Below are positions 7,378-19,017 of a stretch of DNA of 64,000 nt, piece after piece. The notes under the pieces were generated by a model. It saw only the letters and a program-made list of their open reading frames with translations, made no database searches and had not been told where the DNA came from. Made by a program: the position numbers and the translations under genes. The stretch's first letter is position 1; every line of letters begins with the position of its first letter. Source of the stretch: Candidatus Deferrimicrobiaceae bacterium. GTDB taxonomy: Bacteria; Desulfobacterota; Deferrimicrobia; Deferrimicrobiales; Deferrimicrobiaceae. The stretch lies in the NCBI GenBank assembly GCA_963792415.1, contig CAWBVY010000001.1, positions 288,001 through 352,000 on the forward strand. The letters run 5' to 3'.

Positions 7378-8373
7378 TCAACCGGCCTGAGGCAACCCTA
7401 TCGCGTTGAAGTCTTCCTGTGTGTGAATCCAACCTTCCTTCCCGTCGAGGCGGACTTTCAGCCAAAGATCCTCTCCAACTCCCAGGCCGATCCACTCGCT
7501 CCCTTCTTCCCAGACCTGTTCCCCCGAGGCTTCCAGGATCTCCACCCTGGAGTCCTTCCTCAGCACGACATGCTCGGCGATCCCTATTCCTTCCTCCGGC
7601 CCCGGATGAAGCCGCACGAAGGACAATTCGCTCCCGGGCGGCCTGCGGTCCGCTTCCACCTTGAATCGGCATTGGGGCTGCCTGCCATGCGCGGTCATCC
7701 GGGAGCATCGCCATGCCGGCCTCACCTTGGCCAGCATCCAGTCCACCCGCACCGGGATAATCACAAAGACATTCCCCGACCAGACGCGGAAGCGCAGCAC
7801 TTCGGCTCGCAGGCCCGGCTCGGCGGAGGTATGCACGACGTTCCCCGTCGGCGGTTCCGGCCGGACCAGACTTCCCTCCATCGAGATCGGCTTGCTGAAG
7901 GGAACCAGCCTGCCGTTGAACGTTCCAAAGACCTGGTAGGATCCGCCTCCGAGCGGCGTAGAAGGCTCCTCGCCGTAAGTAACCAGTAGCCCGCTGCCCT
8001 GGCTCCCCTCCAGCCTCCGCGCCGAGATCCCCATAGTCCCCGCGAAATGGCTCTCTTCCACCTCCCAGGGAAAAGATTTCGCGTAATGAATGCTGCCCGC
8101 ATCGTCCCGGATCTCCATCCGCGTGACGGTCTCCTCGGAACCGGCTGCGCGTGCGCCGGGAACCCGCAAGCGCTTCAGGTGCAGGACCACCGTGAAGTCC
8201 TGTCGGTTGATGTTCAGCGGTCCGATACGGCGCTCGACGTCTTCGGGCGGTGCGGCAGCGGGAGAGGATTCTTGCTGCCCTTGATCCCCCGCGCCGGAAG
8301 CGGATTGCGCCCAGCCGATCGAGGTCGTCACGAGCACGAAACAGAATCCCAGGATACAGGAGGCGATCCTCAC
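7378..8373 (-). CDS. Exported hypothetical protein with C-terminal SH3-like motif (WLKVRLDGKEGWI)
   Basis: GTG after GAGGAG; signal-peptide-like N-terminus; fused in frame to the upstream membrane ORF in this sequence. Confidence 0.6.
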   Translation of the reverse strand: MRIASCILGFCFVLVTTSIGWAQSASGAGDQGQQESSPAAAPPEDVERRIGPLNINRQDFTVVLHLKRLRVPGARAAGSEETVTRMEIRDDAGSIHYAKSFPWEVEESHFAGTMGISARRLEGSQGSGLLVTYGEEPSTPLGGGSYQVFGTFNGRLVPFSKPISMEGSLVRPEPPTGNVVHTSAEPGLRAEVLRFRVWSGNVFVIIPVRVDWMLAKVRPAWRCSRMTAHGRQPQCRFKVEADRRPPGSELSFVRLHPGPEEGIGIAEHVVLRKDSRVEILEASGEQVWEEGSEWIGLGVGEDLWLKVRLDGKEGWIHTQEDFNAIGLPQAG

Positions 8374-8446
8374 GCTTCTTCTCCTCGTTGCCGGACATTG
8401 CCGTCGTTCCCGGGCGCGACGGGGTGGTTTCCGCCTGCGCGACGGC

Positions 8447-10445
8447 TTATTCGCTCGGGCGGAAGCGGTTTCCCTGTCCGGCTCGCGACTCTCCGGGCCA
8501 GGCATCGGGGGGGCCCTGTGCCACCGGCTCAGGGTGATCGACTGGGCCGCGGCGGCGAGGCCGAAGGAGAGGACGCTCAACACCAGCGGAACGCCCTTGG
8601 TTCCCAGCAGGTCGGAGGCGGTCTTTACCGCTCCCACCGCGATGACCAGGATGGCCACGTTGCGGATCTCCCGGTTGCGGGCTCGGAAGGCGTAGAGGCC
8701 AAGCCCCAGGGCGGCCAGGTTGATGATGATCGACTGGGTGCACTGGAAGACCTCCGACCCTCCGGGCCCGGCGGGAAGGATGATCCAGGCGGCGATCACC
8801 CGAAGGAGGAAGAAGGAACCGGTCAGGGCGGCAAGGAGAGTGATGGCGCCGCTCAGATCCTGCTTGTCGTAGGTACCGAAGAAGGGGGAGCGGGCGGGCG
8901 GGGGGTGGCGCCGGCACCAACGGTAATGGACCAGGGCCGCCGCCGCCAGCGCGGCGCTGGGGACCGTTCCTGCGATGGGCGAGGCGGGGATCCCGTGGGC
9001 CAGGAAATAGTTGGCCAGAGACACGACGGCGTAGACCTGGAGCAGGTAGGAGGTCACCCGCACGGCGCCGCTCCCCCATCGATCGGAGAGGACGGCCACG
9101 CCGAGGGCCGCAGCCCCGAGAACGGGGGCCGCCGGTGCGCTGCCGAGGGCGGCGGGGAGGGCCAGCCCCAGGAGAGCGGCCCCGGCGACGACGAAGGAGT
9201 TGGTGCCGGGGACGCCGTCGATTTTCCGCATCGCGAGCCAGAAGGCGGCCCCGACGTGGACGAGTGCGAACAGGATCGCCACCAGGTTGAGCGCGAGGGC
9301 GCTTCCGTCGGCCTCGCTCACGACGACCCTGGCGGCCAGGTACGACCCGACGGCGCCGATCGTCGGAAGGCAGAAATCGAAGACGGAAACCTTCACGTCG
9401 CGGCTCCGGACGATTCCCAGGAGGGCGATCGCCAGGAAGGCGGCGCTGGCGGCAGCCAGAACCGGCAGGAACCACCCGGGGGCCAGGGTAGCCGCCGCGG
9501 TGGTCCTGCGGGCGACGACGGCGGCGAGCCGCATCCCCCAGAGAAGGAACATGGCCAGCGTGACGAGAAGCACGGTCCAGCGAAGCCAGCCGCAGCGCTT
9601 CAGGGTCCCCGCGTAGTACCCCAGGAAGTTGGCCGTCAGCAGGATCATGAAAAGGTAGGGGAAGAACGGATTCGGGTAGTCGATCGCCGCGCCGGCCAGG
9701 CACATCCCCAGGGTGCCGACCGACACCGGGAGAAAAACCGAGAACCGGCGGCTGACGAACGCCATGCCGGCGCCGGTGGCCATCAGCGTCCAGTAGGCGG
9801 GAACGAGGGGGAGCGACCCGAGGCGGGCGTGGGTCTCGACGACAATGGTCGACATGAGGATCGCCCCGCAGGCGACGAACACCGGGGCCAGGGAACTCTC
9901 TCGCCGATACTGGTACCAGCCGGCCACCATGAGGGAGGCGGCGTAGCCCATCCCGAGCCCCATGCCGAGGAGGGGCGCGACGATGCCGCTGTCGGTGATG
10001 GTCCGCAGGATCAGGGCGACAACCATCAGGAAGCAGAGGGTCGCCAGGCGGGGAAAGAGCGACGCCCGGCTCGCCCAGTGGATCACCTCGTCGGAGAGGC
10101 TGTCGGACTCCCCGGCGGCTGCCTTCCCTCCGGAGCCTTGGCGGCGATGGGCATGCCCTCCGGAGCCTTGGCGGCAATGGGCATGCCCTCCGGAGCCTTG
10201 GCGGCAATGGGCAAGCCCTCCGGAGCCTTGGCGGCCATGGGCAAGCCCTCCGGAGCCTTGGCGGAGGAGGGCTCCCCGGGACGCGGGAGAATCGTCTCCG
10301 GGCGGGCCGTGGACGCGGCAGCCGATCGGTCCCGGCCGGGCGCCGTCCGTTGTCCCTCGAGTTCCGCGACCCGCCGGCCGAGGCTCTCGACATGCTCGTA
10401 CAGCCGGTCGACCTTCTCCTCGATCGTCAGTTTTTGATTGCGCAT
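8447..10445 (-). CDS. DUF2339-like polytopic membrane protein with apparent frameshifts near 10125 and 8510
   Basis: Coiled-coil N-terminus (10445-10125) and many TM helices in another frame; adding one base at each site gives a single ORF ending at TAA 8447. Confidence 0.6.
10126..10271. repeat. Tandem repeat of ~5 x 30 bp (CCCTCCGGAGCCTTGGCGGCAATGGGCATG) built from a REP-like hairpin; encodes AAKAPEGMPI
   Basis: Units start at 10126, 10156, 10186, 10216, 10246. Confidence 0.9.
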
Positions 10446-10603
10446 GCGGGTATCCCCGTGGCTCTGCCGCGGATGTCGGTGCGGGCGGGAGGAGAGCCTT
10501 CATCTATAACGCAGTTTTAATATAATATCAGCGGCGATTGCCGGGATGGCAAGCGAATTCATCCGCCCGGGCGCAACATATTTCCACCGGGACCGGCATC
10601 ACG

Positions 10604-10642
10604 AAAAAAAAGGGAACCCGGCGCGATGCCGGGTTCCCTTTT
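10604..10642. terminator. Intrinsic terminator downstream of SOD, possibly bidirectional
   Basis: AAAAAAAGGGAACCCGGC-gcgat-GCCGGGTTCCCTTTT. Confidence 0.8.
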
Positions 10643-10675
10643 GAAATTTCGACGGTTCTACCTTGCAGGCGAGAT

Positions 10676-11287
10676 CTACGCCTTGGCCTTCTTGAAGTTG
10701 TCCGCCACCTGCGCCCAATCGACGGTGTTCCACCACGCCTCGATGTACTCGGGGCGTCGGTTCTGATACTTCAGGTAATAGGCGTGCTCCCAGACGTCGA
10801 GGCCGAAGATCGCCTTGCCGCCGTCCATGACGGGATTGTCCTGGTTCGCGGTCGATTCGACGGCGAGCTTTCCGCCACGGATCAGCAGCCACGCCCAACC
10901 GGAACCGAATCGCGTTGTCGCGGCCTGGGCGAAGGTTTTCCTGAAATCCCCGAAGTTGCCGAACGTGGCTTTGATGGCGTCGGCCAGTTCTCCCGACGGC
11001 TCGCCGCCGCCGCCCTTTTTCATGACCTTCCAGAACATGGAATGATTCAAATGGCCGCCGCCGTTGTTGCGCACGGCGGTACGAACGGCCTCGGGCACTT
11101 TGCCGATCTGCGCGAGCAACTCCTCGACCGGAAGTTTCTGAAGCTCGGGGTGGGATTCGAGAGCCTTGTTGAGGTTGTTCACATACGCCCCGTGGTGCTT
11201 GTCGTGGTGAATCTCCATCGTCTTCGCGTCAATGTACGGCTCGAGCGCGTCAAAGGCGTATGGAAGCGGAGGTAAATTGTATGCCAT
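10676..11287 (-). CDS. sodA: Mn/Fe superoxide dismutase (Mn-type signature)
   Basis: [34 protein letters not shown]. Confidence 0.93.
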
Positions 11288-11544
11288 CGGGTAGATCTCC
11301 TTTCCTTCCGGCGCGTGACCGGCAGCATCTTTAACAATACGATGCGTCGAGGACACGGGAACGTTTCCCCCCGCGAGGATTTTTATCCTCCGCACGCTGG
11401 GGGGGGTGCCGCCTCGTCGTCGGGGGGTCGCGTTCCATTCCCGTTGAGGGGATATGCCCTCCTACGCCCCGCACATATGGAAATGCAGGCGCTTCGGGGC
11501 TACGGAGGGCATCCTTCGCCAGAGATGGCTCGCCATCCGTCTTG

Positions 11545-11570
11545 TCCTCCGGATCCTTGGCGGAGGAGGA
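11545..11570. repeat. REP-like palindrome TCCTCCGGATCCTTGGCGGAGGAGGA
   Basis: Same element as at 10246-10271 and 22546-22572. Confidence 0.7.
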
Positions 11571-11613
11571 AGCTCGGAACCTCGGGGTTACGATTGCGGT
11601 GAGGAGCGAAGGA

Positions 11614-11640
11614 TGGTGCCGAACAGGCGTCCGAACCGGA
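11614..11640 (-). repeat. Degenerate tRNA-Leu 3'-end copy E (distal end of array)
   Basis: TGGTGCCGAA plus flank TGAGGAGCGAAGG matching the flank of copy D (TGAGGAGTGAAGG). Confidence 0.55.
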
Positions 11641-11774
11641 CCCCTGTGGTGGAGGAATATCGCTTTACTGCCTTATCGTTGTCCCGGGCATGGGGGGGGG
11701 GGGGAATGCCTGAAGGCAGATACCACCCCGATGCGGGTCAACCTCGGCGCCGATCAACGACCTTCAACTGCGAT

Positions 11775-12194
11775 TCAGGTCAATCGGATTCCCTTCTCTT
11801 TCAGGAAAGCGGCGAATGCCTGATCCACAACCCGTATGTGGTTCCTCAGCCAGTTGCCCAGGAAGGTGCCGATGGCTTCGCTCAATTTTTCGGTGACACC
11901 CTCTTCGTTGAAATCCTCGATCAGGTGGTCCAGCGTGCCTTTCAATTCCTCGTGCCTGGCCCTGTGGTCCTCCAGTCCGGAGTAACCGGTTTCCGACATG
12001 GATTTCTCTTCCGTCGAGAAATGGAACTGGGTGTAGTTTATAAGGAAATCCAGCGTGCTCGCTATTTGCGGCATGCCTCGACGAGCCTCTATCGCGGCTT
12101 GCACGTTTTGTATATGCCCGATCCACTTCTTATGCTGTTCGTCGATCAACTCGACGCCGATCGAGAGACTTTCGTCCCAGGTTATCCTGCTCAT
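11775..12194 (-). CDS. Bacteriohemerythrin
   Basis: W..SLSIGVELIDEQH, HFSTEE, H...H, WLRNHI...D. Confidence 0.92.
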   Translation of the reverse strand: MSRITWDESLSIGVELIDEQHKKWIGHIQNVQAAIEARRGMPQIASTLDFLINYTQFHFSTEEKSMSETGYSGLEDHRARHEELKGTLDHLIEDFNEEGVTEKLSEAIGTFLGNWLRNHIRVVDQAFAAFLKEKGIRLT

Positions 12195-12251
12195 GCTCCG
12201 GTTCTCCTGTCCGTGTTTTCGGCGACAACGCGCGGCATGAATCGCCTACTA

Positions 12252-12280
12252 ACGATATACAGGAATCCGGGGCCCGTCAA
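12252..12280 (-). promoter_or_regulatory. Candidate sigma70 promoter for hemerythrin
   Basis: Minus strand TTGACG-N17-TATCGT. Confidence 0.5.
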
Positions 12281-12310
12281 CGGTATCGGCACCCCATGGC
12301 AAAGCCCGCG

Positions 12311-12452
12311 AGCCACTTTTTCGCCGCCCGGGCCGTTTTCAGGAAAAAAGGGATTCCGGCGGGAAGCCGAAATCCCGGCTTGCGTTTGAGATGAGGAGTG
12401 AAGGCCGGTGCCGAAGGCGGGATTTGAACCCGCACGGGTTTCCCCACCACCC
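12311..12452 (-). repeat. tRNA-Leu 3'-half copy D (12407-12452) with hairpin and AGCCAC module
   Basis: GGTGCCGAAGGCGGGATTTGAACCCGCACGGGTTTCCCCACCACCC has 1 mismatch to the tRNA; flanked by AAAAAAGGGATTCCGGC..GCCGAAATCCC. Confidence 0.9.
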
Positions 12453-12461
12453 GTCGAGGTT

Positions 12462-12914
12462 CTACCGCCCGGGGGCTTTTATTGCCTCAATTTCTGATGG
12501 GGAAAGTTCCTTTTTCCTCTTCAGCGACCAGTTTCCAATCCACTTCTTGAGGATCTCCAGGTTCGCGCTTCTCTCCGCGTCAGTGCTCCCGAGATAGGTG
12601 TGCATGTTGCCCGGTTTGCCGTCCTTGGTGTTCTTCCCGTCGTCCAGCCTTCTCATCAGGGCGCCAGCGTCCGATCCCTTGACCACCACCATCAGGTGCT
12701 CGTAAGTGTCCAACCTCGGTCCCTTCATCTTCTTCTTGAACCCTTCCTTATCCCGCCCGAACTCCTCCATCGTGGGCGACTCCGACCCGTGGCAGGCGAT
12801 GCACCGGTTGGCGATTATCCCCTTGATGTCTTTCTCGTAGGTCACGGCCTCCCCGGCAAAGACCGTAACTGCCACCACCGTGATTATGAACGCCGCAATA
12901 ATCCCCCTGCTCAT
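12462..12914 (-). CDS. Monoheme c-type cytochrome, exported
   Basis: Signal peptide and a single CIACH. Confidence 0.8.
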   Translation of the reverse strand: MSRGIIAAFIITVVAVTVFAGEAVTYEKDIKGIIANRCIACHGSESPTMEEFGRDKEGFKKKMKGPRLDTYEHLMVVVKGSDAGALMRRLDDGKNTKDGKPGNMHTYLGSTDAERSANLEILKKWIGNWSLKRKKELSPSEIEAIKAPGR

Positions 12915-13056
12915 TCCCCACCTCCTTCGGTACCTGGTATTTATTATTGATCTTGACAGACCAATCCGGATTTCACCACGGGAAAGATTAACACCTCGTC
13001 CATTCGCCCTCGGGACAGACATCGCTGTGGCATCATTCGTCAGTTACCCCCCCGGG

Positions 13057-13188
13057 AGCCACAAATCAGCCACCCGGGCCGCTTTCAAGAAAAAAGAGGG
13101 CCTGGCGCGAATCCAAAATCCCTTTAGTTATTCGAATGGTGCCGAAGCGGAGACTCGAACCCTCACGGGTCTCCCCGCCACCCCCTCA
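13057..13188 (-). repeat. tRNA-Leu 3'-half copy C (13137-13188) with degenerate hairpin and AGCCACAAATCAGCCAC
   Basis: TGGTGCCGAAG..GAACC..CACGGGTCTCCCCGCCACCCCCTCA. Confidence 0.88.
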
Positions 13189-13209
13189 GAACGGCAGCGT
13201 CGGAGAAAC

Positions 13210-14241
13210 TTAGAGTGCATCCCGATCGTGAGCTGCGCACAGATGAGTCTCGAACGTTACATGGACCAATCCGAGTTCCTCGGGCAGGAACCTGTAGTAG
13301 GCGTCAGGATCCAACGGGCGGGCGGAGATGATCGCGATCTCCGCCGCATAGATTCCCGGGCCTACGGACCACACATGCATGTCGGAGACTCGATTGTCCC
13401 CCTCCGATTCGATCGCGTTCCGGATCGCCTCTACCACCTCGCGCGGGGCCTGCATATCGAGAAGTACGCGGGCCGACGACCGAAGCAGCCCCCAGGACCA
13501 GCGGGTCACGAGCGCCGCACCCACCAGACCCATGAAGGGATCCAGCCACTTCTGTCCAAGGTATTTGCCTGCGAGGAGAGCAAAGATCGCAAGAACGGAG
13601 GTCAGGGCGTCCGCAAGCACGTGAAGATAAGCGGATCGGAGGTTGTGATCCTTGTGCTCATGGGGGATCGAGGGATGTTGGACATTGTGACGGTGATTCT
13701 TCCCCTCGCCGGCATGGCGGGGATGCTCGTGGGGATGATTGTCGTCCTCACCCTGTTTCCGGTTCCCCCTTCCGAGAGAATGGACGTGTCCGCCGAGGAT
13801 GGCTAGGCACGCACCGTTGACGATCAGACCGATGATCGCGACGAGGATCGCCTGGTCGAACCCGATCGCCACGGGCGAAATGAACCGCCGGACGCTCTCC
13901 CAGGCCATGGCAAACGCGAACAACGCCAACGTCGATGCGCTCGCGAACGCCGCCAGCGAGTTCACTTTCCCCGTACCGAAGTTGAAGCGTGAGTCGCTGG
14001 CGTGGATGCGGGTGTAGCGGTAGGCGAACACCGAGATGGCGAGCGCCGAGGCGTGGCTCCCCATGTGGAGACCGTCGGCCAGGAGCGCCATCGATCCGAA
14101 GGCGAGTCCCGCCACGATCTCGACGACCATCGTCAGGACCGTGACGATGCTGACGATCAGTGTGCGCTTTTCGGCGGACCTTCTCACTTCCTGACCAAAC
14201 GTGTGGTCGTGCACCCAGCGTTCAATGGATTCCGTGTGCAT
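13210..14241 (-). CDS. dmeF: CDF-family Co/Ni/Zn efflux transporter, DmeF-like
   Basis: GSMALLADGLHM, His-rich loop, NLRSAYLHVLADALTS, DMHVW. Confidence 0.85.
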   Translation of the reverse strand: MHTESIERWVHDHTFGQEVRRSAEKRTLIVSIVTVLTMVVEIVAGLAFGSMALLADGLHMGSHASALAISVFAYRYTRIHASDSRFNFGTGKVNSLAAFASASTLALFAFAMAWESVRRFISPVAIGFDQAILVAIIGLIVNGACLAILGGHVHSLGRGNRKQGEDDNHPHEHPRHAGEGKNHRHNVQHPSIPHEHKDHNLRSAYLHVLADALTSVLAIFALLAGKYLGQKWLDPFMGLVGAALVTRWSWGLLRSSARVLLDMQAPREVVEAIRNAIESEGDNRVSDMHVWSVGPGIYAAEIAIISARPLDPDAYYRFLPEELGLVHVTFETHLCAAHDRDAL

Positions 14242-14349
14242 ATCGATGTCCTTGACTATTTGAGGCAGCGTCCGGTCCCAGCGCTTCGAGATCGGCATGA
14301 TCAGAATACCGGAATATCCGTCGCTTCTTTACACCGCTAATGACCCGCA

Positions 14350-14475
14350 AGCCACAAATCAGCCACTCGGGCCGAAAAAACGAAAAAAGGGACTCCGGAG
14401 GAAAGCCGAAATCCCTTTAAGAATTGCCATGGTGTCGAATGGGGGACTCGAACCCCCACGGGTTTCCCTACCGCT
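14350..14475 (-). repeat. tRNA-Leu 3'-half copy B (14430-14475) with hairpin and AGCCACAAATCAGCCAC
   Basis: TGGTGTCGAATGGGGGACTCGAACCCCCACGGGTTTCCC; AAAAAAGGGACTCCGG..CCGAAATCCCTTT. Confidence 0.88.
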
Positions 14476-14483
14476 GCCATCGC

Positions 14484-14870
14484 CTAACAGCAGCCTGCCG
14501 CACGACCCGCAGTTGTTCGTATCAGGCGTTCCGGAATGGCTTCGTATACTGTCCCTTCTTGCTCCACCGTCCGACATGCGACATCTTCTTCTCCGGTCAG
14601 GTCGCAGCAGGATGCGCACGAACTCTCCCCTCCGCTCGCCCCCGGGACAAGGGACTCAATGGGAATCCCGTTGAAGAGGATCTGATTAGATTGCCGGATC
14701 TCACCCGCCCCCAATAACGTTTCCTTGAATGCCACCCGGATGCCGCTCTCCTCGCACTCGCTGGTCAGCACCTTAACCACCTCGGCTAGTGTTCTTCCAG
14801 TATCCTCGCAGCGAATGCAAGTTGCCCCTTCCTTGTCCAGATGCCTCCACTCTATCTCCAAAGTCTTCAT
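14484..14870 (-). CDS. DUF2703-like Cys-rich thioredoxin-fold protein, often found near heavy-metal/arsenic genes
   Basis: IEWRHLD..G.TCIRC..TG, SNQILFNG, SCASCC, CRTVE..G..YE.IP. Confidence 0.75.
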   Translation of the reverse strand: MKTLEIEWRHLDKEGATCIRCEDTGRTLAEVVKVLTSECEESGIRVAFKETLLGAGEIRQSNQILFNGIPIESLVPGASGGESSCASCCDLTGEEDVACRTVEQEGTVYEAIPERLIRTTAGRAAGCC

Positions 14871-15303
14871 CCTAATCACCTCCCACCAGGACGGTTAACA
14901 GATGCCCCACAATCAGGATACACCCACCACCCACACAAGATGAGGGAAGTTAGGCCACAACGCAATCCACTCCTATATGACCGAATTAATGGAGAATATC
15001 GCGCACGATGTCTTCCGGATAAAAAGACGGAAATCCCGCCATCAATTTCAAATACATCGGGAAAATTAGATTAAGCGGGTCCCAATTCTGGCTGCCATCA
15101 TGTTCGATGGGGTATGCAAACCCCAAGACGATTATGATCTACGTGTATTTGGGGAAATCGTGCATTAGCTAGCAGAGTGAGAAACTCAATGGTACTCGCT
15201 TGCTCCAGTGACAAAGCCTCTATGATGGTCGTGGGCCGGATTGTGTGATTGCCTTCGGGCGGCGACTTTTCCGGCTTTCGCAATCCGGCCCGTTTACCTC
15301 AGT

Positions 15304-15762
15304 CTACATTCCCCCCTCGGATTTCTTCAGCTCCCCCTTAGCCCATTTTTCCAAAGGTTTCGGGTTCGGTTTGTACCAGTGGGATTTATCGGTCCAGACG
15401 TAGGTGGCATGGATTTTGTTTCCTTGGACCGTTCCCTCCCAGTGAATCTTTCCTTTCTTCTCGCTGGTCGTGTCCGCCACGAACTTTATGGTGTCCCCCT
15501 CTACCGTAGCCATATAAGGAGCTTCACTGAAGCCGTACTGGTCGCACTCGACCGAACGGAATTTTCCATCCTTGAAAACCAGCGTATCCGTTCCTTTCGC
15601 CTCCTTCCCCTTTTCCCCCTGCTGGACCACGAAGGTCTTCCCGTCCAGCGCACCACCCGCCGATTCATGATGTGCCCCGATTGCCAACCTCCCACCACCT
15701 GCCACAAGCAGAAAAACCCCTAAAACCGAAAAAATCCGCTTCAAATAGCCTGTCGATCCCAT
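15304..15762 (-). CDS. Exported hypothetical protein, small beta-rich
   Basis: AAGGAGG RBS and signal peptide; LDGKTF..DTLVFKDGKFRS.EC..YGF. Confidence 0.7.
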   Translation of the reverse strand: MGSTGYLKRIFSVLGVFLLVAGGGRLAIGAHHESAGGALDGKTFVVQQGEKGKEAKGTDTLVFKDGKFRSVECDQYGFSEAPYMATVEGDTIKFVADTTSEKKGKIHWEGTVQGNKIHATYVWTDKSHWYKPNPKPLEKWAKGELKKSEGGM

Positions 15763-16011
15763 ATCCCGTTTCCTCCTTTAATAGTCGCCCAATTTGTGTT
15801 TTATTTCAGCCACCTTCCCGTTAGACAGAAATAGATCCGCAATTTTCAAAATTAGATTCCTCCAAACTTGATAATGATTCTTTGGAGATAAAAAATCCTG
15901 TCGCGATCATACATGGAGTGACCAGCCCATATTCGAATCGGTCCGTTGAACGATAAACTCTCTCGTTCCCCATGCTTCCCTTGAGGGTATTGGCTTACCG
16001 CAGCAGTGCGA

Positions 16012-16062
16012 TGGTGCCGAAGGGAGGACTCGAACCCCCACGGGTCTCCCCACCACCCCCAT
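16012..16062 (-). repeat. tRNA-Leu 3'-half copy A, 900 bp from the tRNA end
   Basis: TGGTGCCGAAGGGAGGACTCGAACCCCCACGGGTCTCCCCACCACCCCC. Confidence 0.9.
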
Positions 16063-16367
16063 CAACACCATCCCCGCCCCCCCCTTTCGCCCCGAAAAAC
16101 GACGATATTTGCAAGGGGTTTGCGATACATCACGAGCGAAGATCCTGGTCACCCACCCCAAGCCCCAGTGCTGCGCGGTTCTCTCTTCCGTGAGCGCGGA
16201 GATCGCCATGCCAGGGCTTACGCACCCTCTCGACGGTGACGTCCGCGTCCTCAGAACTTCCTTTCCCGCAGCACCGGCAGGCAGGTTCCCGCATCAAAAT
16301 ACTGATCCTTCCGGCGACCTCCCGTCGCAGGACTCATAATGGTCCTCAGGACAAGGGGGTAACGAAG

Positions 16368-16808
16368 ATGATGAGAACGTTAGTCGGAACCGTACTGCTG
16401 TTGCTGGGGGCGTCCGCCTTCGCCGCGGAGAGCTCGGACATGCCGAAGGTGCTCTCGAACGCGGACTGGTCGAAGATGGAAACCGTCACCGTGACGATGA
16501 CCGAATACGCCTTCTCGCCTTCCCGTGTTCTCCTGAAGGCCGGGACACCGACGAAGCTCGTACTCCGCAACGAGGGGAAGGAGCACCACTACTTCGTCGC
16601 GGAGAAGTTCTTCGGTACGATCGCCACCCGCAAGGTCCAGGGGTCGGACGGGGAGGTGAAGACGCCGCTCCTGACAGCGGCGGAGGTGTACGCCGGGAAA
16701 AGTCTGGAGTGGTTCCTGGTGCCCACGGAGAAGGGGACGTTCGACCTGGTGTGCACCGTCAAGGGACACGCCGACCGCGGGATGAAGGGGACGATCGAGG
16801 TCCGCTGA
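16368..16808 (+). CDS. Periplasmic cupredoxin (blue copper-like) protein
   Basis: Signal peptide; EYAFSP, NEG..HHY, CTVKGHADRGM type-1 Cu ligands. Confidence 0.85.
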   Translation: MMRTLVGTVLLLLGASAFAAESSDMPKVLSNADWSKMETVTVTMTEYAFSPSRVLLKAGTPTKLVLRNEGKEHHYFVAEKFFGTIATRKVQGSDGEVKTPLLTAAEVYAGKSLEWFLVPTEKGTFDLVCTVKGHADRGMKGTIEVR

Positions 16809-16830
16809 CCATCGAGGGCTGTACACCCAC

Positions 16831-16900
16831 GAGCCACAAATGAGCCAGTCGGCCCCTTTTTAGAAAAAAAGGGACTTCGGCGGAAATCCGAAATCCCTTT
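16831..16900 (-). terminator. Hairpin/terminator downstream of the tRNA plus AGCCACAAATGAGCCA direct repeat (putative integrase arm-type site)
   Basis: AAAAAAAGGGACTTCGG-cggaaat-CCGAAATCCCTTT; same module at 14350, 13057, 12311. Confidence 0.7.
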
Positions 16901-16911
16901 CATTATTGCGA

Positions 16912-16996
16912 TGGTGCCGAAGGCGGGATTTGAACCCGCACGGGTCTCCCCACCACCCCCTCAAGATGGCGTGTCTGCCAGTTCCACCACTTCGGC
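16912..16996 (-). tRNA. tRNA-Leu(GAG)
   Basis: GCCGAAGTGGTGGAACTGGCAGACACG CCATC-TTGAGGG-GGTGG, long variable arm, GGTTCAAATCCC, CCA end; 85 nt. Confidence 0.96.
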
Positions 16997-17014
16997 GCGT
17001 TGCTGCGGAGAAAT

Positions 17015-17043
17015 ATAGTATCCACCCTCCCGTCGAAAATCAA
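17015..17043 (-). promoter_or_regulatory. Candidate sigma70 promoter of tRNA-Leu
   Basis: Minus strand TTGATT-N17-TACTAT, ~20 nt upstream of the tRNA. Confidence 0.55.
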
Positions 17044-17178
17044 TATGGAGAGTTCGGCGAGCGGCAGGCGCGACTCCGGGTTCCGCCCATCGATGTCCGG
17101 TTGAACGTTTTTCTTCCAAAATCGACCGCATCCCTGTACTCTTTTCCGGGAAATCTCATACCTTAGCGGGGGACGGTC

Positions 17179-19017
17179 ATGGCGGAAGAAGAAGCGCCGC
17201 GTCGCGGCGGCTTGTACCGGAACGTAATCAGTCTTGCCGGGGCGCTCATCTCCGGGGGAAGCATCCTCCTCATCATCTTCGCGCTCGCGCTCGAGTACAG
17301 CGCCAAGCGGCCCAGCCCCTACATCGGCATCTTCACCTACATGCTGTTCCCGATGTTCTTCGCCCTGGGCGCCGCCGTCTTCCTGTACGGGATGCGGCAC
17401 GAGAGCCTGCGCCGGCGCAGCGCGCAGCGCGAGGATGCGCTCGCATACCCCCTGGTCGACCTGAACATCCCGAGGCACCGGAAACGGTTCATCTACGTCG
17501 TGCTCGGGGGAACGTTCCTCTCCGTGTTCATGGCGTTCGTGACGTACAACGCCTTCCTGTACACCGAGTCCGTCCCGTTCTGCGGCACCCTGTGCCACAC
17601 GGTGATGCAGCCCGAATACACGTCCTACCTCGCATCCCCCCATGCGCGGGTGGCCTGCGTGGATTGCCACGTCGGTCACGGCGCCTCCTGGTACGTCAAG
17701 GCGAAGATCTCGGGGCTGCGCCAGGTGCTCGCCGTGGCGACGGGATCGTACCCCACCCCCATTCCCACCCCGATCGAGAACCTGCGCCCGGCGCGGGAGA
17801 CGTGCGAGGAGTGCCACTGGCCCGACAAATTCTTCGGGACCCAGCTGATGCAGAATCCCCACTTCCGGTACAACGAGGCGAACACCGCGGAGCAGATCAG
17901 CCTCGGCGTGAAGACGGGGGGCGGCAGTTCGTCGCTGGGCGGGACCGCGGGGATCCACTGGCACATGATCATCAAGAACCGGGTCAGCTACGTCGCAACG
18001 GACCGGCAGAAGCAGGAGATCCCGTATCTCGAGGTTCGCGACGCGCAGGGGAACCTGGAGGAGACGTACACCAGCCTCGACTACAAGGGGACCCAGGAGC
18101 AGCTCGCGACCCTCCCCAAGGACATCATGGACTGCATGGACTGCCACAACCGGCCGACGCACATATACCAACCCCCGGACACCGCCGTGGACCGCGCCAT
18201 GACCACGGGGCTCATCCCCCGGACGCTCCCATGGGCAAAGAAGGTGGTCGTGGACGCCCTGGTCCGCGAATACCCCACGACCGAAAAGGCCCACGAGGGG
18301 CTCACCGCCGAGATCGAGGGGTTCTACCGCCAGAAGTACCCCTCCGTCTTCCAGGCGCGCAAGGCCGACGTGGAGAAGACGGTCGCCCAGGCGATCGCCA
18401 TCTTCGACCGCAGCGTCTTCCCCGACATGAAGGTGAACTGGAAGACGTACACCTCCAACATCGGGCACCGGAACTGGCCGGGCTGTTTCCGCTGCCACGA
18501 CAGCCGGCACGTGTCCAAGAAGGGGAAGGTCCTCAGCATGGGGTGCACGGAGTGCCACACGATGCCGGAGCGGGGACCCCTCATGCCGCTGGGATCCGTT
18601 TCCCCGGACAGCAAGATGCCGTGGCACCCCGTGCAACTGCAGGGGAAACACGCCCGGATCCTGTGCAACCAGTGCCACTCCGCGGGCTACCGACCGCCGT
18701 CCGAGTGCGCCGAGTGCCACAAGTTCGACACCTCCGCCCCGATGATGAAGATGGCGTGCACGGACTGCCATCAGAAACCGGGGGAGGCGAAACCGTACAC
18801 CGCGTGCAAGGAGTGCCACGACACGGTGCGTGGGCTGCACACCAAGGGTGGACACCCCGAGGCCGCCTGCATGGAGTGCCACAAGCCGCACGAGTGGGCC
18901 GTCGTTGGGCGCGACCCTTGCCTTGCGTGCCACAGCGACATGAAGGAGCACAACGCCGCGAAGGGCGCGTGCGTCTCCTGTCACTCGTTCCGGGAGGGGA
19001 AACAGGCGAAGAAGTGA
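17179..19017 (+). CDS. NapC/NirT-family inner-membrane multiheme cytochrome (ImcH-like) with C-terminal heme extension
   Basis: 3 N-terminal TM helices; 12 CxxCH plus one CxxxCH (CGTLCH). Confidence 0.85.
   Translation: MAEEEAPRRGGLYRNVISLAGALISGGSILLIIFALALEYSAKRPSPYIGIFTYMLFPMFFALGAAVFLYGMRHESLRRRSAQREDALAYPLVDLNIPRHRKRFIYVVLGGTFLSVFMAFVTYNAFLYTESVPFCGTLCHTVMQPEYTSYLASPHARVACVDCHVGHGASWYVKAKISGLRQVLAVATGSYPTPIPTPIENLRPARETCEECHWPDKFFGTQLMQNPHFRYNEANTAEQISLGVKTGGGSSSLGGTAGIHWHMIIKNRVSYVATDRQKQEIPYLEVRDAQGNLEETYTSLDYKGTQEQLATLPKDIMDCMDCHNRPTHIYQPPDTAVDRAMTTGLIPRTLPWAKKVVVDALVREYPTTEKAHEGLTAEIEGFYRQKYPSVFQARKADVEKTVAQAIAIFDRSVFPDMKVNWKTYTSNIGHRNWPGCFRCHDSRHVSKKGKVLSMGCTECHTMPERGPLMPLGSVSPDSKMPWHPVQLQGKHARILCNQCHSAGYRPPSECAECHKFDTSAPMMKMACTDCHQKPGEAKPYTACKECHDTVRGLHTKGGHPEAACMECHKPHEWAVVGRDPCLACHSDMKEHNAAKGACVSCHSFREGKQAKK

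Follow-up and report, generated by a model that had tools for sequence, protein, structure and literature searches.

The anticodon loop is a known class of tRNA integration site, and the islands that stand in tandem at tRNA or tmRNA genes bring their own integrase each and measure several to tens of kb. Integrons and the clusters of attC sites lacking integron-integrases (CALINs) hold cassettes of one or two genes with their own sites, rich in toxin-antitoxin and stress genes, and integrase-free arrays of them exist. Here we describe a stretch of 64,000 nucleotides from Candidatus Deferrimicrobiaceae bacterium (assembly GCA_963792415.1, contig CAWBVY010000001.1, positions 288,001 to 352,000 of the forward strand; the window hereafter), in which an intact tRNA-Leu(GAG) gene is followed by displaced copies of its 3' half that divide the region into small units without an integrase gene. 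Other described systems come close to it. Tandem tRNA and tmRNA islands, as reported for Islander (PMC4383910) and for Dehalococcoides ssrA (PMC3146451), present an intact target together with direct repeats of the displaced 3' fragment. Cis-mobilizable elements (CIMEs) are units that lack an integrase, keep their att sites, are stacked serially at the 3' end of a target gene and owe their mobility to the integrase of a neighbouring or incoming element (PMC5704250). The tycheposon islands of Prochlorococcus are anchored at tRNA genes and contain dispersed partial tRNAs, with newcomers displacing earlier material outward and niche-related cargo remaining (10.1101/2020.12.28.424599). No description of arrays such as the present one was found in the titles and opening abstract lines that the literature searches listed, although the tycheposon supplements may hold comparable examples. 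The reading that we favour, with a probability of roughly 0.55, is that non-autonomous cassettes were captured one after another, in a site-specific manner, by an integrase supplied in trans.

Displaced tRNA-Leu 3' halves

Throughout the text, G000 is the genome of the window, other G numbers are genomes of relatives and L numbers are other stretches from species genomes and metagenomes. The features that define the array all lie on the minus strand:

16912-16996 (-), intact tRNA-Leu(GAG), putative attB anchor (ARAGORN; Rfam, 48.9 bits)
16826-16911 (-), P'-like arm 1, terminator hairpin and then the pair CTGGCT/GTGGCT at a spacing of 11 bp, which starts some 63 nt behind the tRNA
16013-16063 (-), fragment A, tRNA-Leu 3' half with a GGGGG/CCTCC T-stem variant, without arm
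14431-14482 (-), fragment B, diverged 3' half
14344-14430 (-), P'-like arm of unit 3, hairpin and two GTGGCT repeats
13138-13189 (-), fragment C, 3' half with decayed T-stem
13051-13137 (-), P'-like arm of unit 4
12407-12457 (-), fragment D, 3' half with 98% identity to the resident tRNA 3' half
12305-12406 (-), arm of unit 5, about 30 nt resembling a tRNA-Leu(CAG) flank, then hairpin and degenerate GCGGCG/GTGGCT
11497-11625 (-), relic E, the final ~12 nt of a tRNA-Leu and 117 nt of tRNA-Leu(CAG)-type 3' flank
10566-10652 (-), arm-like terminator behind the superoxide dismutase (SOD) gene, without tRNA fragment (arm profile E = 3.4e-9; 5e-8 genome-wide)

The tRNA-Leu(GAG) gene is the sole tRNA that ARAGORN finds in the window, and no second GAG isoacceptor gene occurs in the 2.84-Mb, 11-contig genome. 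A preliminary description, made from the sequence alone, had reported the intact tRNA and five same-strand copies of its 3' end. Four of these copies are clear, as a degenerate 32-nt pattern with at most two mismatches matches the tRNA and fragments A-D exactly, with no match in 100 dinucleotide shuffles. When aligned over 46 nt with copy D as the reference, the fragments show 78-98% identity and the tRNA itself 98%, and the successive spacings from the tRNA through A, B and C to D are 900, 1582, 1293 and 731 bp. Every fragment begins within the anticodon loop or within the 3' anticodon stem and has the tRNA end as its 3' edge. The picture of small, integrase-free units bounded by tRNA 3' halves cut in the anticodon loop is upheld. 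The fifth copy, placed near 11614, stood only in part: a repeat is present there, but just ~12 nt of it are tRNA and the rest is tRNA-Leu(CAG) flank.

Relic E shares its 117 nt of flank, at 86% identity, with the 3' flank of a tRNA-Leu(CAG) gene on contig C6 (G000:C6:455170-455287). Taken with the tRNA end, window positions 11497-11623, between the hemerythrin and SOD genes, align with G000:C6:455160-455287 at 86% over 127 nt, and the arm behind fragment D has an insert of ~30 nt of the same flank type. These copies of CAG flank suggest, at the sequence level, exchange between the tRNA-Leu(GAG) and tRNA-Leu(CAG) loci. Fragment D was also considered as a hidden whole tRNA, for which cmscan needed a 51-nt insert and gave 24.8 bits (E = 0.13), under the gathering score; we take this match as chance.

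A conserved arm behind the tRNA ends

The repeat does not stop at the tRNA 3' end, a point absent from the preliminary description, and continues for ~88 nt behind the tRNA and behind fragments B, C and D. This arm consists of a terminator hairpin followed by GGCCCG-GTGGCT-N5-GTGGCT-CGCGGG, with the two repeats 11 bp apart, and in integrase-less arms the GTGGCT pair begins 63-64 nt after the tRNA end. A profile of the arm has eight matches in the 2.84-Mb genome, namely four in the array, the terminator behind SOD, one weak match, one on contig C8 behind a tRNA-Lys fragment and one on contig C9 behind an extra Leu fragment in a tRNA-Arg array. With at most three mismatches the arm motif gives four true matches in G000, and with at most two it is found in 12 of the 28 genus genomes (reversed control, 0). 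Among 401 sampled genomes from the phylum, it occurs in G000 and in five of the 11 other family members, and outside the family at about the control rate. The arm stands directly behind the tRNA in half of the 14 relatives whose tRNA locus was compared.

Across 40 distinct modules of tRNA end and arm, the arm hairpin has changes on both sides at three pairs, and the T-arm occurs as two compensated alleles, GC in 19 modules and CG in 16. The compensated alleles and the two-sided hairpin changes indicate that the modules once were working tRNA ends and terminators in different hosts. Both alleles are present in the G000 array, and the acceptor strand of fragment B, ATTCGAC, cannot pair with the 5' half of the resident tRNA; the modules of G000 thus originate from functional tRNA-Leu genes of other lineages. 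The long-range pairs in the RNAalifold consensus of the module were set aside, as they are invariant and uninformative.

Two other roles for the arm were considered and dropped. A genome-wide terminator of the repetitive extragenic palindrome type is ruled out by the mere eight profile matches. TGGCT-N7-TGGCT matches the GG/GC spacing of sigma-54 promoters, but the motif is restricted to the modules (4 matches in 2.84 Mb) and the copy at the tRNA faces a convergent gene, so that a promoter was abandoned as its main role, without a search for a sigma-54 gene.

The arm is also seen at other tRNA genes. In metagenome contigs (L162:50-210, L150:2662-2826, L190:420-639 and L205:3655-4088) a full or partial arm directly follows intact tRNA-Arg(ACG) and tRNA-Asn(GTT) genes, and a Leu fragment with arm lies 220 nt behind a tRNA-Lys(CTT). 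The module is therefore not bound to the Leu gene.

Integrase-bearing elements at the same tRNA

A clade of tyrosine integrases at tRNA-Leu(GAG) does exist, in a few relatives. In G021 a frameshifted tyrosine-integrase gene lies against the 3' end of the tRNA-Leu(GAG) gene in convergent orientation, the same gene is found at a contig end in G020, and in a scan of species genomes the clade adjoins tRNA-Leu(GAG) or tRNA-Leu(CAG) in L073, L075 and L076. An intact copy (PF00589, 1.4e-29) is carried in L178 by a 6.9-kb low-GC element together with a DNA methylase. L197 is the chromosome of L178 without the element, at 95.7% identity, and provides a pair of occupied and empty sites whose joint lies in the core. 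A second integrase type occurs at the same tRNA in L185, with two ATGGAAG repeats at the P' position; there the integrase unit is fused to a cassette of the GTGGCT type, the intervening core being lost. In L192 and L193 a 100-aa integrase relic stands beside a junction.

The layout of these elements is that of the integrase-less units, with different arm repeats. On the P' side of L178 a hairpin precedes two GGGCAGA repeats with an 11-bp spacing, which lie some 63 nt behind the tRNA and overlap the 3' end of the integrase gene; this pair recurs on the P side, upstream of the displaced fragment by roughly 110 nt. Many relatives have a corresponding P arm of ~150 nt, with two GTGTCC (or GTGGCT) repeats about 117 nt upstream of the fragment, in G001, G005, G008, G009, G017 and about 25 of the 80 metagenome loci described below. 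By sequence, GTGTCC twice about 117 nt upstream and GTGGCT twice about 63 nt downstream would form an attP layout of the lambda type that mirrors the GGGCAGA pairs of L178. Among 77 displaced fragments with complete 5' ends in the metagenome loci, 21 have the P arm with paired GTGTCC. When the junctions of these 77 fragments are classified, 17 have both P and P', 31 have P' without this P arm, three have P only, 20 have neither and six are cut by a contig end. The junctions with both arms have the make-up of complete P-core-P' sites, which is what the interior of a tandem of att-bearing elements would contain. Compared with them the sites of G000 are incomplete, since they have no P arm and the cargo genes end 0-20 nt ahead of the core.

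In L178:6927-8228, L073:2584-2991 and L024:2051-2671 the integrase frames have no stop before the tRNA and continue in antisense across the P' repeats and the entire tRNA gene. With the frame reading through the tRNA, the end of the integrase protein would differ between the integrated and the circular form.

Searches for an integrase in the window and genome

The preliminary description had seen no integrase gene in the 64 kb, and this is borne out. PF00589 has no match in the window, the nearest one lying ~100 kb off on the contig, and the serine recombinase family PF00239 has none in the G000 genome. A tblastn search with integrases against positions 10400-17300 found no integrase body or remnant, so that no integrase remains are seen inside the units; its sole matches come from the read-through tail of the L178 frame overlying tRNA and arm DNA. 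The gene behind the arm on contig C8 encodes an RsgA GTPase and not an integrase. An Rfam scan of positions 9000-19000 gave only the tRNA and one weak leader match, no dedicated attC model being included. A tyrosine integrase next to the same module, for which a genome search had been proposed, was not found, and none matched to GTGGCT arms was seen in the other genomes and loci compared.

A 340-aa tyrosine integrase is encoded near a tRNA-Met at G000:C6:355753-356775, with 86-92% identity in 12 relatives. A whole, cut or distant copy is present in 19 of the 28 genus genomes including G000 (broken in G021 and G012). It is distantly related to the tRNA-Leu integrase of L185 and is absent from the arm-bearing G004 and G008; judged by sequence, it could be regarded as a candidate only for the enzyme of the arms.

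Variation of the locus across the genus

The locus is hypervariable, as had been expected if cassettes come and go. Both flanks, a multihaem cytochrome and a membrane-protein gene, are conserved at 80-95%, and the interval between them spans 1.7-37 kb in the seven genus genomes in which it could be measured (1.7 kb in G002, ~4 kb in G014, 6.4 kb in G000, 8.6 kb in G004, ~16 kb in both G011 and G021, and 37 kb in G024). The cargo is mostly unshared: apart from hemerythrin, present in G014, and SOD, present in six genomes, no cargo gene of G000 reappears at the locus, and in G002 SOD lies elsewhere. Small units bounded by Leu fragments are found in G008 (1.1 kb), G012 (1.6 kb), G001 (1.7 kb) and G017 (2.4 and 4 kb), that of G008 holding a HicAB-like pair; the cargo labels of G008 and G017 were read from the sequence and not from a family search. 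Gene calls in the relatives come from a codon-score caller trained on G000, and their strands are approximate. The T-arm/acceptor pattern occurs at least three times in 18 of the 28 genomes, exceeding the number of GAG and CAG genes, with 10 copies each in G002 and G011.

The closest relative is G014, with 92% identity in the flank; behind its tRNA come a hairpin of its own and then directly hemerythrin. Homology between the two genomes begins ~100 nt before the hemerythrin start and ends at its stop codon. The preliminary description had expected breakpoints to coincide with the fragments. Here this is so on one side only, the left breakpoint lying in the tRNA and the right one behind arm D rather than at fragment D; among the metagenome loci the expectation fared better, with most breakpoints in modules.

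Module-bearing loci in metagenomes

The arm motif is found in more than 120 metagenome stretches, 80 of which were kept as loci (375 kb). They contain 67 inter-site segments of 333-6855 bp (median 1466 bp, near-duplicate contigs included), mostly with one or two genes. Of 94 genes called in the segments, 63 are on the array strand and 31 on the opposite one. A Pfam scan covered 85 of the 94, nine duplicates being dropped, and its commonest families are Gp49 and its HTH antitoxin partners, BrnA, MazE, Fic, Cache, RsgA, TerC and cation efflux; integrase families are not among the 25 most frequent of these 85 genes. An integrase match occurs in four of the 80 loci, never beside a GTGGCT arm.

Some cargo of the window reappears in similar settings. 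Five contexts outside it hold the cation diffusion facilitator (CDF) gene, with arms on both sides in G021:C1, L198 and L202 and with an arm upstream in G023:C374 and L209, and L225 has fragment, arm, the cytochrome gene PccH and arm in the same order as in the window. Arrays with the RsgA cassette are known from three tRNA anchors, Leu (L185), Asn (L190) and Lys (G000:C8). Comparison of loci with 95% identity or more gives 42 internal breakpoints, of which 30 fall in a module of at least one partner and 19 in modules of both, the pairs not being independent, and modules make up 6.2% of the bases compared.

A search for phage carriers in two viral-contig scans was negative: one gave a single match in a coding region, without tRNA or hairpin and within a rough chance estimate, and the other none. 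Contigs from public reads contain only repeat joints with sides shorter than 30 nt, typical of repeats or other organisms; each public sequencing run compared contains at most 31% of the sampled words, and one of the runs used for these contigs may derive from the source sample.

Cargo and flanks of the array

The genes of the array and its flanks are the following:

17179-19017 (+), conserved flank, multihaem cytochrome, 80-92% identity across the genus
16236-16808 (+), unit 1, cupredoxin-like secreted protein (PF13473), convergent with the tRNA
15304-15762 (-), unit 2, 152-aa secreted protein, no Pfam family
14484-14879 (-), unit 2, DUF2703 protein, stop codon abutting fragment B
13210-14298 (-), unit 3, CDF (PF01545)
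12462-13022 (-), unit 4, PccH-type cytochrome c (PF22297)
11775-12194 (-), unit 5, hemerythrin (PF01814)
10676-11395 (-), distal gene of the low-GC block, Fe/Mn SOD
7378-10503 (-), conserved flank at the other edge of the variable region, membrane-protein gene

Every reading frame of the array is intact, and the earlier statement that each unit has one or two small genes is confirmed. Homologues of the 152-aa secreted protein, at 46-58% identity, are found in the arrays of relatives. The array has a GC content of 48-62% against 65-72% in the flanks and, summed from coordinates, is ~65% coding and ~11% module. At its start the membrane-protein gene (window 10083-10445, 7378-10503) encodes a coiled N-terminus and serial AKAPEG(L/M)P(I/M)A repeats; in G000 its long frame differs from its start frame, which a frameshift or an assembly slip in the repeat may explain.

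Other tRNA loci of the genome

At least nine other tRNA genes of G000 have displaced fragments nearby (on C1, C2, C4, C6, C7, C8 and C9), namely Thr-CGT, Ser-CGA, Arg-CCT, Met, Ala-GGC (two), Arg-ACG, Arg-TCT and Lys-CTT (three on C8), and C9 has five 5' halves of Arg genes. The spacing is 1-5 kb, the loci are mostly free of integrases and among the genes that they carry are TerC (three times), RsgA, ParE, a chromate transporter and an FtsH paralogue. Fragments of tRNA-Leu 3' halves lie with an arm inside the tRNA-Arg(TCG) array (G000:C9:132080-132196) and 1.6 kb from tRNA-Asn, beside TerC and ParE genes (G000:C4:132402-132449). The tRNA-Thr(CGT) gene is found on three contigs (C1:187859-193500, C2:1776-5444 and C3:90-2248); the genes downstream of the C1 and C2 copies are identical in part, both copies have a displaced fragment, and integrase pieces adjoin the copies on C1 and C3. 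The three contigs appear to hold variant forms of a single island from the population that was assembled.

Origin of the array

In the favoured reading, the tRNA-Leu(GAG) gene would serve as the attachment site at which tyrosine-integrase elements cross over in the anticodon loop and supply a tRNA 3' half of their own. The array would be a stack of five small non-autonomous cassettes and a more decayed sixth unit with SOD, every cassette consisting of a core (the ~52-nt tRNA 3' half) and one or two cargo genes, and four also having the ~88-nt P'-type arm, whose GTGGCT pair, one helical turn apart, would provide the putative arm-type integrase sites. Each arrival would rebuild the tRNA and shove the earlier 3' half and its cassette outward. 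Since no cassette encodes an integrase, the enzyme would have been supplied in trans, either from a transient integrase-bearing element at the same site or from a gene elsewhere. From the repeats, their edges and the site layout shared with the integrase elements, we infer that the junctions were made by an integrase; movement of every cassette by itself, binding of the enzyme to the GTGGCT repeats, excision and transfer would follow the same line of thought. The capture in trans suggested by the preliminary description is thus supported in its small integrase-free units, their variability and the position of breakpoints, but a matching integrase was not found and decay from larger islands remains a rival.

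Several observations speak against such capture. The P arm has no match anywhere in G000, whose junctions are of the core-P' type only, and fragment A has no arm at all. No integrase close to the tRNA-Leu clade was found in G000, the best match reaching 50% over 52 residues (72 kb of contig C6 lay outside the search), and across the 80 loci and the genus none stands beside an arm of the GTGGCT or the GTGTCC type, so that the enzyme is hypothetical. No circular or excised cassette was seen by contig-based read matching. The segment and breakpoint counts from metagenomes include near-duplicate contigs, and short contigs bias the units towards small size. In addition, cassette homology often begins 80-190 nt after the previous core and not at the core itself, and the arms before hemerythrin in G000 and G014 cannot be aligned. 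These last two points indicate that the arrays are also reshaped by a process that does not run from core to core, probably homologous exchange between modules, which may be the sole process acting in G000 at present. With no P arm and no candidate enzyme seen, the G000 array itself may now be immobile, a fossil of earlier captures.

The strongest alternative, which we nevertheless consider unlikely, is that the units are decayed ordinary islands, each of which once had an integrase and lost it with most of its genes, thereby becoming a CIME. Decay is the textbook route to integrase-less elements flanked by att sites (PMC5704250). The frameshifted integrase of G021 with its counterpart at the contig end of G020, the relics of L192 and L193 and the fused unit of L185 are what such decay would leave, and the lack of a P arm at the G000 junctions and of an arm at A and E gives the array an eroded look. 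Against this, the units of the window are compact and free of integrase relics, and the few integrase matches among the 80 loci avoid the GTGGCT arms. Moreover, in the integrase elements the gene abuts the P' repeats, whereas all GTGGCT arms stop at the same point, and in dozens of cassettes the cargo behind them is unrelated; ends so uniform would require either many identical deletions or one integrase-less ancestor that spread, and the latter amounts to the favoured reading. It is this regular att module around unrelated cargos, together with the missing relics, that leads us to prefer travelling cassettes without an enzyme over the decay of islands.

Improbable as a full account is an array without any site-specific enzyme now, in which the 140-nt modules of fragment and arm serve as portable homology for RecA-type recombination, unequal crossing-over and uptake of foreign DNA: a suitable integrase is missing from G000, the modules show 70-98% similarity and a length sufficient for homologous exchange, breakpoints in modules are equally expected from homology, and homology edges behind the arm rather than at the core fit it better, but it leaves unexplained how the first duplicated 3' halves with anticodon-loop edges arose, why the arm repeats are conserved at the distances of the integrase elements, and the occupied and empty sites of L178 and L197.

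Capture in trans could also be part of something larger. One may tentatively imagine, though we find it doubtful, a self-standing cassette system of independent origin from integrons within a single bacterial family, in which P-core-P' modules of ~290 nt, with GTGTCC and GTGGCT arm repeats on either side of the tRNA-Leu 3' half, would be the counterpart of attC, a dedicated integrase encoded away from the arrays would integrate, release and rearrange cassettes of one gene, and several tRNA genes (Leu, Asn, Arg, Lys) would act as anchors. The corollary that such a system would maintain tRNA-linked banks of stress, metal and toxin-antitoxin genes is just as speculative.

If the favoured reading is true, bacteria would have a second route, independent of integrons, to bank and swap small adaptive genes as minimal att-bearing tRNA cassettes, and island finders that rely on integrases would miss such arrays. 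It would also explain hypervariable tRNA-linked regions in streamlined sediment bacteria with few recognisable mobile elements. The regular site layout offers an experimental handle and could supply compact landing modules that restore the tRNA for genetic tools. Should the units be decayed islands only, the locus would still be a clear case of accretion at one tRNA building a cluster of metal and redox genes.

Comparison with known systems

Like tandem tRNA and tmRNA islands, the locus has an intact tRNA and, behind it in the same direction, 3' fragments cut in the anticodon loop; an integrase for each island is not found. Its likeness to CIMEs and their accretion, as in ICESt1 and ICESt3 of streptococci, lies in integrase-less att-bearing units stacked at the 3' end of a target gene. 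Units 1-4 have cores on both sides and no recombinase, and the P arm is absent. CIMEs, however, are described as decayed integrative and conjugative or integrative and mobilizable elements of many kb, usually one per site, whereas here up to five single-gene units of 0.7-1.6 kb stand in a row. One conserved att module is shared by dozens of cargos and no relic of conjugation or integration was seen in the array; as to an origin by decay, the window holds no relic, and G021 and L192/L193 show relics at the site.

Tycheposons by definition carry integrases, and often replication genes, the integrase-less genes of their islands being treated as remnants, whereas the integrase-less units described here have a regular att module, which in relatives extends to full P-core-P' sites. 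No recombinase or replication genes occur in the units, which hold the cupredoxin, the 152-aa secreted protein, DUF2703, CDF, PccH and hemerythrin.

The resemblance to integrons and CALINs consists of cassettes of one or two genes, a site for each of them, and toxin-antitoxin and stress genes. In contrast to an integron, the array has no intI, attI or common promoter (Pc), about one third of the called genes are on the opposite strand, and the recurring sites, which were compared without a dedicated attC model, are tRNA-Leu 3' halves with lambda-type arm repeats. The term integron-like platform used in the preliminary description is therefore kept as an analogy and not as membership, with no resident integrase, attI or common promoter present. 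By this comparison the array would best be placed as a variation on CIME accretion and tycheposon-type islands, with integrons and CALINs as functional analogues only.

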